Source: Escherichia phage 212. Taken from it: a stretch of 64,000 nucleotides of DNA. The notes below the pieces were generated by a model. It saw nothing but the letters and a program-made list of their open reading frames with translations, did no database searches and was not told the DNA's origin. The stretch lies in the sequence record PQ765507; one strand, given 5' to 3'. The translations under genes were made by a program, and so were the position numbers. Shown in pieces: positions 21,640 to 22,435 of this stretch (position 1 is the first letter of the stretch; each line of letters starts with the position of its first letter).

Positions 21640-22080
21640 ATGATTAACAGAACTCTAGTTATCAAAAAACTTCGTTGTAAAAATCAAAATGCACAAGCAT
21701 ACAGGATGTTTTGGAGCGACGAACCCATTCAATACCTGGGTTATTTTCTTGTTGATAGTGATAATAGAATTACGTTTGCTCATAAACTTCTTAACAAAGA
21801 ATTAAACCATTGGCAAGAACTTATTGCGGTCAAGTCTAAATTATTTTCGCGCAATACAATGCACCAATTGGTTTATTTTTTCGCTGATGGTATTCCTGAC
21901 AAGGTTGAATTTGATGGGTTTGAATTTAAAGACATCAACCCTGATAATGAATTGAATGACAGTATTGTTAATATGGGTATCCCGGGTAAGTACATTAAAA
22001 ACAGTCTTTTGAAACTTCTGGAAACCCCTGTATATTCAGTTGATGACCAGATTTTTAATGCCTTCATGAAGCGAGACTAG
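21640..22080 (+). CDS. hypothetical protein; C-terminal tail SVDDQIFNAFMKRD shared with next gene
   Basis: Internal ATG of track ORF 21553..22080 right after sp stop. Confidence 0.45.
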   Translation: MINRTLVIKKLRCKNQNAQAYRMFWSDEPIQYLGYFLVDSDNRITFAHKLLNKELNHWQELIAVKSKLFSRNTMHQLVYFFADGIPDKVEFDGFEFKDINPDNELNDSIVNMGIPGKYIKNSLLKLLETPVYSVDDQIFNAFMKRD

Positions 22081-22081
22081 T

Positions 22082-22435
22082 ATGAGTTATTATAATTTTC
22101 TGAATTTTGAACTGGCGAGCAATAATGACGGTAATGCTCATTATGAATTTCGTGAGCCTCGTTATAATCAGGCGATTGGTTATATTATCGTTAAAGATGG
22201 TGTTATCGTAAAGGCTCGTTCATTTATGACAATGAATGGGCCTTGTGAAGATAATCGTGGTTATCCATTTGATAAAAAGAACGTACGCGATTGTGCAATA
22301 TGGATAACCGGAAACCCCGAAATTGGGGTCATGATATCTACTGAAGCGAATGACATTTTGGAAGGGGCTTGGGTCAAAGCTCAAGAACAGTCTGTTGACG
22401 ACCAGATTTTTAATGCCTTCATGAAGCGAGGTTGA
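22082..22435 (+). CDS. hypothetical protein; C-terminal tail SVDDQIFNAFMKRG shared with previous gene
   Basis: ORF bracketed by 37-bp direct repeats. Confidence 0.45.
   Translation: MSYYNFLNFELASNNDGNAHYEFREPRYNQAIGYIIVKDGVIVKARSFMTMNGPCEDNRGYPFDKKNVRDCAIWITGNPEIGVMISTEANDILEGAWVKAQEQSVDDQIFNAFMKRG

Follow-up and report, generated by a model that had tools for sequence, protein, structure and literature searches.

The window, a stretch of 64,000 nucleotides from Escherichia phage 212 (sequence record PQ765507), belongs to a T4-like phage of the SP18/VR20 type, and the region studied here shares 93–97% identity with Shigella phage SP18, VR20 and numerous further T4-like phages of E. coli. The conserved left border is sp (spackle), annotated as such in SP18, VR7 and VR26, see Table 1. 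It is followed by two open reading frames, here called G and S, by a DUF7279 gene and a small ORF, and finally by 61.1 and the primase gene 61. T4 has gene 61.2 (adfA) in the corresponding slot, bounded by sp and 61.1, and the gene orders of T4, T2 and AR1 show that the position of S and G, between sp and the 61.1/primase genes, matches this slot. The locus with dmd, tifA and adfA has been described as the anti-toxin-antitoxin (anti-TA) island of T4-like phages (PMC9391042).

Table 1. Positions of genes, repeat copies and associated signals (window coordinates, except for the T4 gene in the last line).
Feature	Position	Strand	Remarks
dmd (70 aa)	20732	+	Pfam Dmd match
dmd-like paralogue (113 aa)	20945	+	Pfam Dmd match
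sp (spackle)	21345–21638	+	Pfam T4_Spackle 1.7e-43; conserved left flank of the variable slot
ORF G (146 aa; VR7 gp039 type)	21640–22080	+	phrog_8539, PHROG 3.4e-91; ATG as in orthologue annotations
Conserved segment of G, KYIKNSLLKLLETPVY	21988–22035	+	directly before the tail
Repeat copy 1	22036–22084 (core 22039–22075)	+	G codons S133–R145, last codon GAC
Signals in repeat copy 1	22073–22082	+	weak SD-like GAGA 22073–22076; stop TAG 22078–22080; S ATG at 22082
ORF S (117 aa; annotated '61.2' in VR7)	22082–22435	+	phrog_4122, PHROG 9e-53; gene between the repeats
Repeat copy 2	22391–22439 (core 22394–22430)	+	S codons S104–R116, then GGT
Signals in repeat copy 2	22428–22437	+	SD-like GAGG 22428–22431; stop TGA 22433–22435; ATG of next gene at 22437
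DUF7279 gene ('61.4-like')	22437–22658	+	Pfam DUF7279 3.3e-20; right flank, itself an optional cassette
Small ORF	22633–22824	+	
61.1	22844–23011	+	
Primase 61	23044–24072	+	
T4 gp61.2 (AdfA)	L005 2133–2759	−	

The island contains a second tandem pair, dmd and the 113-aa dmd-like ORF (20732–21286). These two genes share a 34-nt patch with 91% identity, NALV[KE]AFV[ND]D at the protein level, repeated at 20862–20895 and 21078–21111, as well as near-identical gene junctions (GAGGAAATCTAAATG, 20714–20734 and 20927–20947). A stem-loop of high G+C content that has a T run (AAAGGGGCTTACAGCCCCTTT) is found further to the left, at 20352–20387, where it overlaps with a sigma-70-like promoter (10/12, TG extension). 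It lies just upstream of the ORF at 20414 and resembles a promoter/terminator cassette of the PeSL type described in the last section. At the right end, the DUF7279 ORF and the small ORF overlap by 26 nt (22633–22658) in different frames.

The repeat and the tail it encodes

The 37-nt pattern GTTGAYGACCAGATTTTTAATGCCTTCATGAAGCGAG was found twice on the plus strand in an exact pattern search of the 64-kb window. The copies are identical at 36 of 37 positions, the sole difference being the Y position (T vs C), and the pattern had no match in 100 dinucleotide-preserving shuffles. Ungapped extension widens the pair to 49 nt with 88% identity and a spacing of 355 nt. This period equals the 354 nt of S (stop included) plus a single spacer base, T22081. 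The initial annotation had reported a 37-bp near-perfect direct repeat and described the repeat-to-repeat unit as one gene plus one repeat copy, and both descriptions hold.

At the protein level, G and S have the common ending SVDDQIFNAFMKR, followed by Asp in G and by Gly in S; just before their stop codons, G reads ...PVYSVDDQIFNAFMKRD and S reads ...QEQSVDDQIFNAFMKRG. The shared C-terminal tail noted in the initial annotation is recovered by BLASTP as an alignment limited to 13 tail residues, all of them identical (13/13). The self-comparison it had proposed as a check, here performed as a DNA repeat search, found no direct repeat linking G and S besides the tail. There are also no further tail copies in the window, neither as DNA with up to three mismatches nor as peptide in a six-frame regular-expression search. 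Both repeat copies are present in more than 30 independently sequenced phage genomes, so the repeat is not an assembly artefact. What is repeated as DNA is the coding sequence of the tail peptide together with the stop codon, the Shine-Dalgarno sequence and the start of the next gene.

Across the family, the tail comprises 13–14 residues of the form [ST][VI]DDQIFNAFM[KN]R[GD]. The motif S[VI]DDQIFNAFM[KN]RG is found in S, in G (with Asp as last residue) and in T4 AdfA (gp61.2), which ends in ...VSIDDQIFNAFMNRG. Searching viral contigs and the collected loci with the pattern DDQIFNAFM gave three kinds of body with this tail: AdfA (~210 aa), S-type (~118 aa) and G-type (~146 aa). Carriers include T2, ime09 and AR1 with S-type proteins, VR26 and MX01 with G-type proteins, and the variants P0066 and P0072. 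Single-query word-indexed protein searches returned close relatives only, while an alignment of the mixed family reached other bodies, adding P0066, P0072, P0065, P0068/69 and also P0073/74 with the variant ...DDQIFNFWMK. The corresponding locus of Kosakonia phage 305 encodes a protein ending in ...TIDDQIFNYWMKK, and in that of EcS1 ...SVDDQIFEAFMERD is followed by 13 more residues, i.e., the motif is internal and lies 14 codons from the stop. In total, the tail was found in at least five genera, and in T4, T2 and VR26 it is carried by single-copy genes. One tail set was collected with a pattern that forces DDQIFNAFM, so its invariance is partly there by construction, and the unbiased evidence comes from the body-based searches.

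A tblastn search with a 20-residue tail query, at a permissive E-value limit, matched 907 places in 710 phage records, which indicates two copies in many genomes, roughly 200 of them. A degenerate pattern for the tail coding sequence had no match in 185,579 species-representative genomes of bacteria and archaea, so this is not a host or prophage motif. The family is small, as an exhaustive HMMER search of 1.84 billion representatives gave 9 clusters only, the Kosakonia and EcS1-type variants being beyond the reach of the profile. The motif string has no occurrence in the searched literature. Clamp-binding (PIP-like) motifs have the forms QxxLxxFF and QL[SD]LF, which QIFNAFM does not fit.

Bodies of S, G and AdfA

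S aligns with T2-type proteins over the full length with 44–47% identity. The T2-type protein in turn scores 32.4 bits against the Pfam AdfA family (PF23813, cut-off 27), with residues 21–118 aligned to profile positions 112–211. The S of the window reaches 21.5 bits, below the 27-bit cut-off, and is aligned in the tail only (residues 102–117 to profile 196–211); its last 16 residues are matched both by the Pfam AdfA model and by the AdfA PHROG. Since the T2-type protein passes the threshold, S would belong to the family by transitivity. G has no match in Pfam and falls outside the AdfA model. One cluster of the S family (P0040) has the source name 'MAG: Limosilactobacillus reuteri', which probably reflects phage DNA that was assigned to a metagenome-assembled genome during binning.

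Profile–profile comparisons were made after removal of the tails. The hhalign scores are 21.7 for S–G, 26.5 for S–AdfA and 23.5 for G–AdfA, and in each pair none of 150 column shuffles reaches the observed score (null means 11–12, highest 24.3). The aligned ranges of the three pairs are mutually consistent; the E-values are weak, 1e-3 to 1e-2, with a probability <25%. In a MAFFT alignment, S, G and the C-terminal half of AdfA are colinear, with the pattern Y.F...(Y)hGhhhV.(D/N)..I, then F..(N)....A/V, then a strand, and with G33 and V37 invariant.

The AlphaFold models (pLDDT 81 for S and 72 for G) agree in the order of their elements, with five strands followed by a helix, a further strand and low-confidence C-terminal helices. 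In G, b1–b5, a1 and b6 are followed by a disordered linker before these helices. When the S model was searched with Foldseek against BFVD, a database of predicted viral structures, its best non-self match, at rank 2, was the G orthologue of VR25 (E-value 3.6e-4, TM-score 0.58), and an AdfA-sized protein of 212 aa came at rank 4; Foldseek E-values include an amino-acid term, which the shared tail inflates. A protein of Yersinia phage fPS-65 is matched by both models and is the best non-self match of G. The PDB yielded no relative.

AdfA is matched by the family profile in two stretches, and FVFVKNNEII in its N-terminal half resembles GGIFVKDNRI in the C-terminal half. From the two-stretch match, AdfA appears to be an internal duplication of a module that S and G carry once. 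With tail-less shuffles and a colinear alignment in agreement, we regard the bodies of S and G as homologous to the AdfA module, and S, G and AdfA as distant paralogues according to profiles and predicted folds. The relationship of S to AdfA is solid, while the link of G to S and AdfA is weaker.

G differs by a second ultra-conserved segment, KYIKNSLLK(L/I)LE.PVY across its family. The columns K117–Y132 are invariant or nearly so, though the bodies drop to 30% identity, and AlphaFold predicts the segment as a separate low-confidence helix after the disordered linker. Orthologues of G occur in Dhakavirus and those of S in T2-like phages. As each has its own orthologues in other genera, the split between them should predate these genera.

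If one gene had recently undergone an ordinary tandem duplication and the copies had then diverged normally, this would explain why G and S are adjacent, on the same strand and alike in fold and C-terminus. However, whole-length sequence similarity, as expected from such an event, was not found: the bodies lack BLAST-detectable similarity and are related through profiles and folds only. The lengths differ, G has the extra KYIKNSLLK segment, near-identity is confined to the tail DNA, and the separate orthologues, in T2-like phages for S and in Dhakavirus for G, speak against a recent origin as well. We find this scenario extremely improbable.

Selection and gene conversion in the tail

Within the S family, body identity falls to 26–46% and indels accumulate in the linker directly before the tail, and DDQIFNAFM.RG is invariant. 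The G family likewise has an invariant tail on diverging bodies. The tail has a pLDDT of 50–58 in the models of both S and G and is therefore not packed on the body. To separate conservation of the peptide from conservation of the DNA, codon pairs for the same amino acid in two tails were compared with the expectation from genome codon usage, see Table 2.

Table 2. Identical codons among degenerate codon pairs of two tails.
Pair	Comparison	Identical/degenerate	Expected	P
Window S vs T2 S	between genera	6/11	4.7	0.31
Window G vs T4 AdfA	between genera	5/10	4.4	0.46
Window S vs L014 AdfA	between genera	7/12	5.1	0.20
Window G vs S	one genome	10/12	5.3	0.005
VR20 G vs S	one genome	11/12	5.3	0.0006
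AR1 AdfA vs S	one genome	10/12	5.4	0.006
VR7 G vs S	one genome	7/10	4.7	0.13 (not significant)
ECML-359 G vs S	one genome	6/10	4.7	0.31 (not significant)
T4 AdfA vs T2 S	same backbone position	13/13	5.7	1e-5

Between genera, the synonymous sites are randomised, i.e., saturated, which points to selection on the peptide. By this codon test, the tail peptide is shown to be held by purifying selection at the protein level. Within the genomes of the window, VR20 and AR1, codon identity is above chance, which indicates real exchange of DNA between the copies by local gene conversion. Where the G tail of VR7, VR26 and ECML-359 has CAA and TTT, that of the window and of VR20 has CAG and TTC, the states of the S tail. 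Conversely, the S tail starts with AI or DI in VR7 and ECML-359, and with SV, as in the G tail, in the window and VR20. The codon patterns thus show the 36/37 identity to be a lineage-specific homogenisation (gene conversion) on top of a deep conservation of the peptide. In Tequatrovirus, the tail beside 61.1 is identical base for base under the AdfA body of T4 and the S body of T2, so the tail at this position moves with the backbone and not with the cassette.

Could the repeat instead be conserved as a nucleic-acid element, such as a cassette for translational coupling and ribosome binding, an RNA structure or a PeSL-like recombination linker, with the peptide being incidental? The last tail codons do hold the SD-like GAGG, with the next ATG 5 nt downstream, and every cassette boundary in this region is (T/C)AATATG or TGATATG, junctions that other gene-precise deletions have used. 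The codon sharing of paralogous tails within a genome beyond chance would also fit. However, between genera the synonymous positions vary freely and the peptide does not, and the Shine-Dalgarno sequence accounts for about 6 nt and not for 37. In EcS1, the motif has an internal position, 14 codons from the stop. The PeSL features, an intergenic promoter and stem-loop, are absent at the repeats. When 91 nt around each copy were folded, both were weaker than their shuffles (z = +1.3 for both), and a scan of 19500–24500 against Rfam gave only one sub-threshold sRNA match, located elsewhere than the repeats. A role primarily as nucleic acid is in our judgement unlikely.

Gain and loss of whole genes, and function

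VR26 and MX01 have the gene order sp–G–DUF7279 and a single copy of the tail; compared with the window and VR7, the alignment gap runs exactly from tail to tail and covers one unit. These phages are the one-ORF relatives that the initial annotation had suggested looking for, and they carry the first ORF only. A corresponding polymorphism is seen in Tequatrovirus. Here, AR1 and contig L023 have the order sp–AdfA–S–61.1, and AdfA and S each end in a tail. Taking S and one tail away from AR1 gives the T4 arrangement; taking AdfA away gives that of T2, where a 14-nt remnant of a tail end (TAGAGGTTAGTATG) is kept before S. In T2 (L006), compared with AR1 (L024), this remnant is at about 2432–2446, between sp and the S-type gene. 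It suggests that T2 derives from an arrangement with both AdfA and S through a microhomology deletion of AdfA.

In all the one-unit events, the ORFs and the junction of stop, Shine-Dalgarno sequence and ATG are left intact. Both ECML-359 and Yersinia phage P8 lack the DUF7279 gene precisely, from ATG to ATG, and in both the next small ORF comes immediately after S. Losses of other cassettes of the array at (A/T)ATATG junctions are gene-precise as well, and indels of this kind at AATATG junctions seem to be general in this array. In the P8 record (PP693301.1), small ORFs are labelled 'transcriptional regulator', 'exonuclease' and 'major capsid domain-containing protein', apparently annotation errors. 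The genome comparisons indicate that recombination at the repeat has added or removed exactly one gene in related phages, where the direction of each event is our reconstruction. The same holds for the exact crossover point; the junction in VR26 could equally well be placed in the 7-nt TAATATG after the tail.

These variants, together with a BLASTP alignment of the 13-residue tail only and the lack of other DNA repeat similarity, are also what one would see if an unrelated gene had been inserted, or a segment duplicated, at a chance short homology, leaving the repeat as a scar and the tails as a functionless by-product. The single copy at the empty site in VR26 and MX01 agrees with an insertion junction. 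However, the tail is carried by single-copy genes in T4, T2 and VR26, so it was not created by the insertion event; it extends over at least five genera with saturated synonymous sites, and a scar is not expected to stay invariant as a peptide. Neither is the bracketed DNA unrelated, as the bodies are homologous at the profile and fold level. We consider a scar of this kind very unlikely. Of the insertion or duplication at a short homology proposed in the initial annotation, the gene-precise presence and absence stands, both in VR26 and MX01 and between T4 and AR1, while the insertion of an unrelated gene has to be given up. Its preference for a junction repeat over full-length homology is likewise contradicted by the column shuffles, the AlphaFold models and Foldseek.

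We therefore favour, as the probable explanation, a pair of tandem diverged paralogues of the AdfA family whose invariant C-terminal peptide doubles as an in-register recombination site. G and S would be anciently diverged members of this T-even family, located in the variable slot that sp and the primase gene delimit. Each member would consist of a fast-evolving body, with one b-sheet/helix module in S and G and two in AdfA, a linker of variable length and the invariant tail of 13–14 residues. Recombination of T4 type is very active, so an identity of 37–49 nt would allow tandem members to recombine in register. Such an event would delete or add one intact gene, with the upstream ORF, its tail and the translational coupling preserved. 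The natural one-unit variants in two genera fit this mechanism.

From family membership and location, we infer an anti-defence role for S and G. AdfA binds DarT1 and thereby neutralises it; binding is decided by residue 164 of the body (PMC11257639), and this residue falls within the module aligned to S and G. By this analogy, the best guess is that S and G inhibit other variants of toxins or defence systems, and possibly they inhibit DarT-like toxins. Deletion of adfA in T4 had no phenotype against DarTG1 (PMC11257639).

The models also hint at the role of the tail: a low-confidence helix tethered by a linker fits a docking peptide, and the tail may thus be a flexible docking helix for an invariant partner. 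It can be speculated, rather tentatively, that it is a docking handle common to the family, an amphipathic helix on a flexible linker with which the hypervariable AdfA, S, G and the variants all bind one invariant partner. This partner could be the conserved core of a DarT-type toxin, or a hub protein of phage or host. The variable bodies would then give target specificity, and the DNA of the handle would make the locus a plug-and-play recombining array. If this is true, identifying the partner would provide a mechanism for several T-even orphan genes in one step, and the motif could serve in searches for new anti-defence genes.

Two orphan genes of a T4-like phage can be assigned to a family by this analysis, as AdfA-like and probably anti-defence. 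It also suggests that phages described as lacking adfA carry a half-size paralogue instead; T2, for example, has been treated as lacking it in published work (PMC11257639). The underlying principles, from tandem paralogues and conserved motifs to recombination at short homologies in the hyperplastic regions of T-even phages, are already well established. The repeat is a clean natural example of a strongly selected peptide motif that would double as an in-register recombination site, and this double role would make an anti-defence locus an array of cassettes that can be exchanged as whole genes.

The closest known system is AdfA itself (T4 gp61.2, anti-DarT factor A, PF23813). S and G occupy the same slot after sp, upstream of 61.1 and primase, and share its invariant C-terminal peptide, and S aligns to its C-terminal half. 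However, AdfA has two modules and S and G one each, the S and G of the window are on their own below the Pfam cut-off, and G adds the conserved segment and the disordered linker.

PeSLs are short conserved sequences that flank non-essential genes in hyperplastic regions, where recombination inserts, deletes or replaces whole genes (PMC2839356). They consist of an intergenic promoter and a stem-loop terminator, while the repeat here is coding, without stem-loop and selected as a peptide; no terminator-like site was found at either copy. In the gp38 adhesins, conserved coding motifs rich in glycine, which are needed for structure or function, separate fast-evolving specificity segments and ease their exchange (Trojet et al. 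2011, PMC3157838). Those motifs lie inside one gene and shuffle its segments, while the tail ends each gene of the array and would shuffle whole genes. Finally, in the dmd-tifA locus of T4, which is in the same genome island as the tail repeat, amplification and deletion by recombination at short flanking homologies change the copy number of anti-defence genes (Srikant et al. 2022, PMC9391042). There, the homologies are fortuitous and the events derived in the laboratory, while here 37–49 nt of identity are built into the gene family and the variants are a natural polymorphism.
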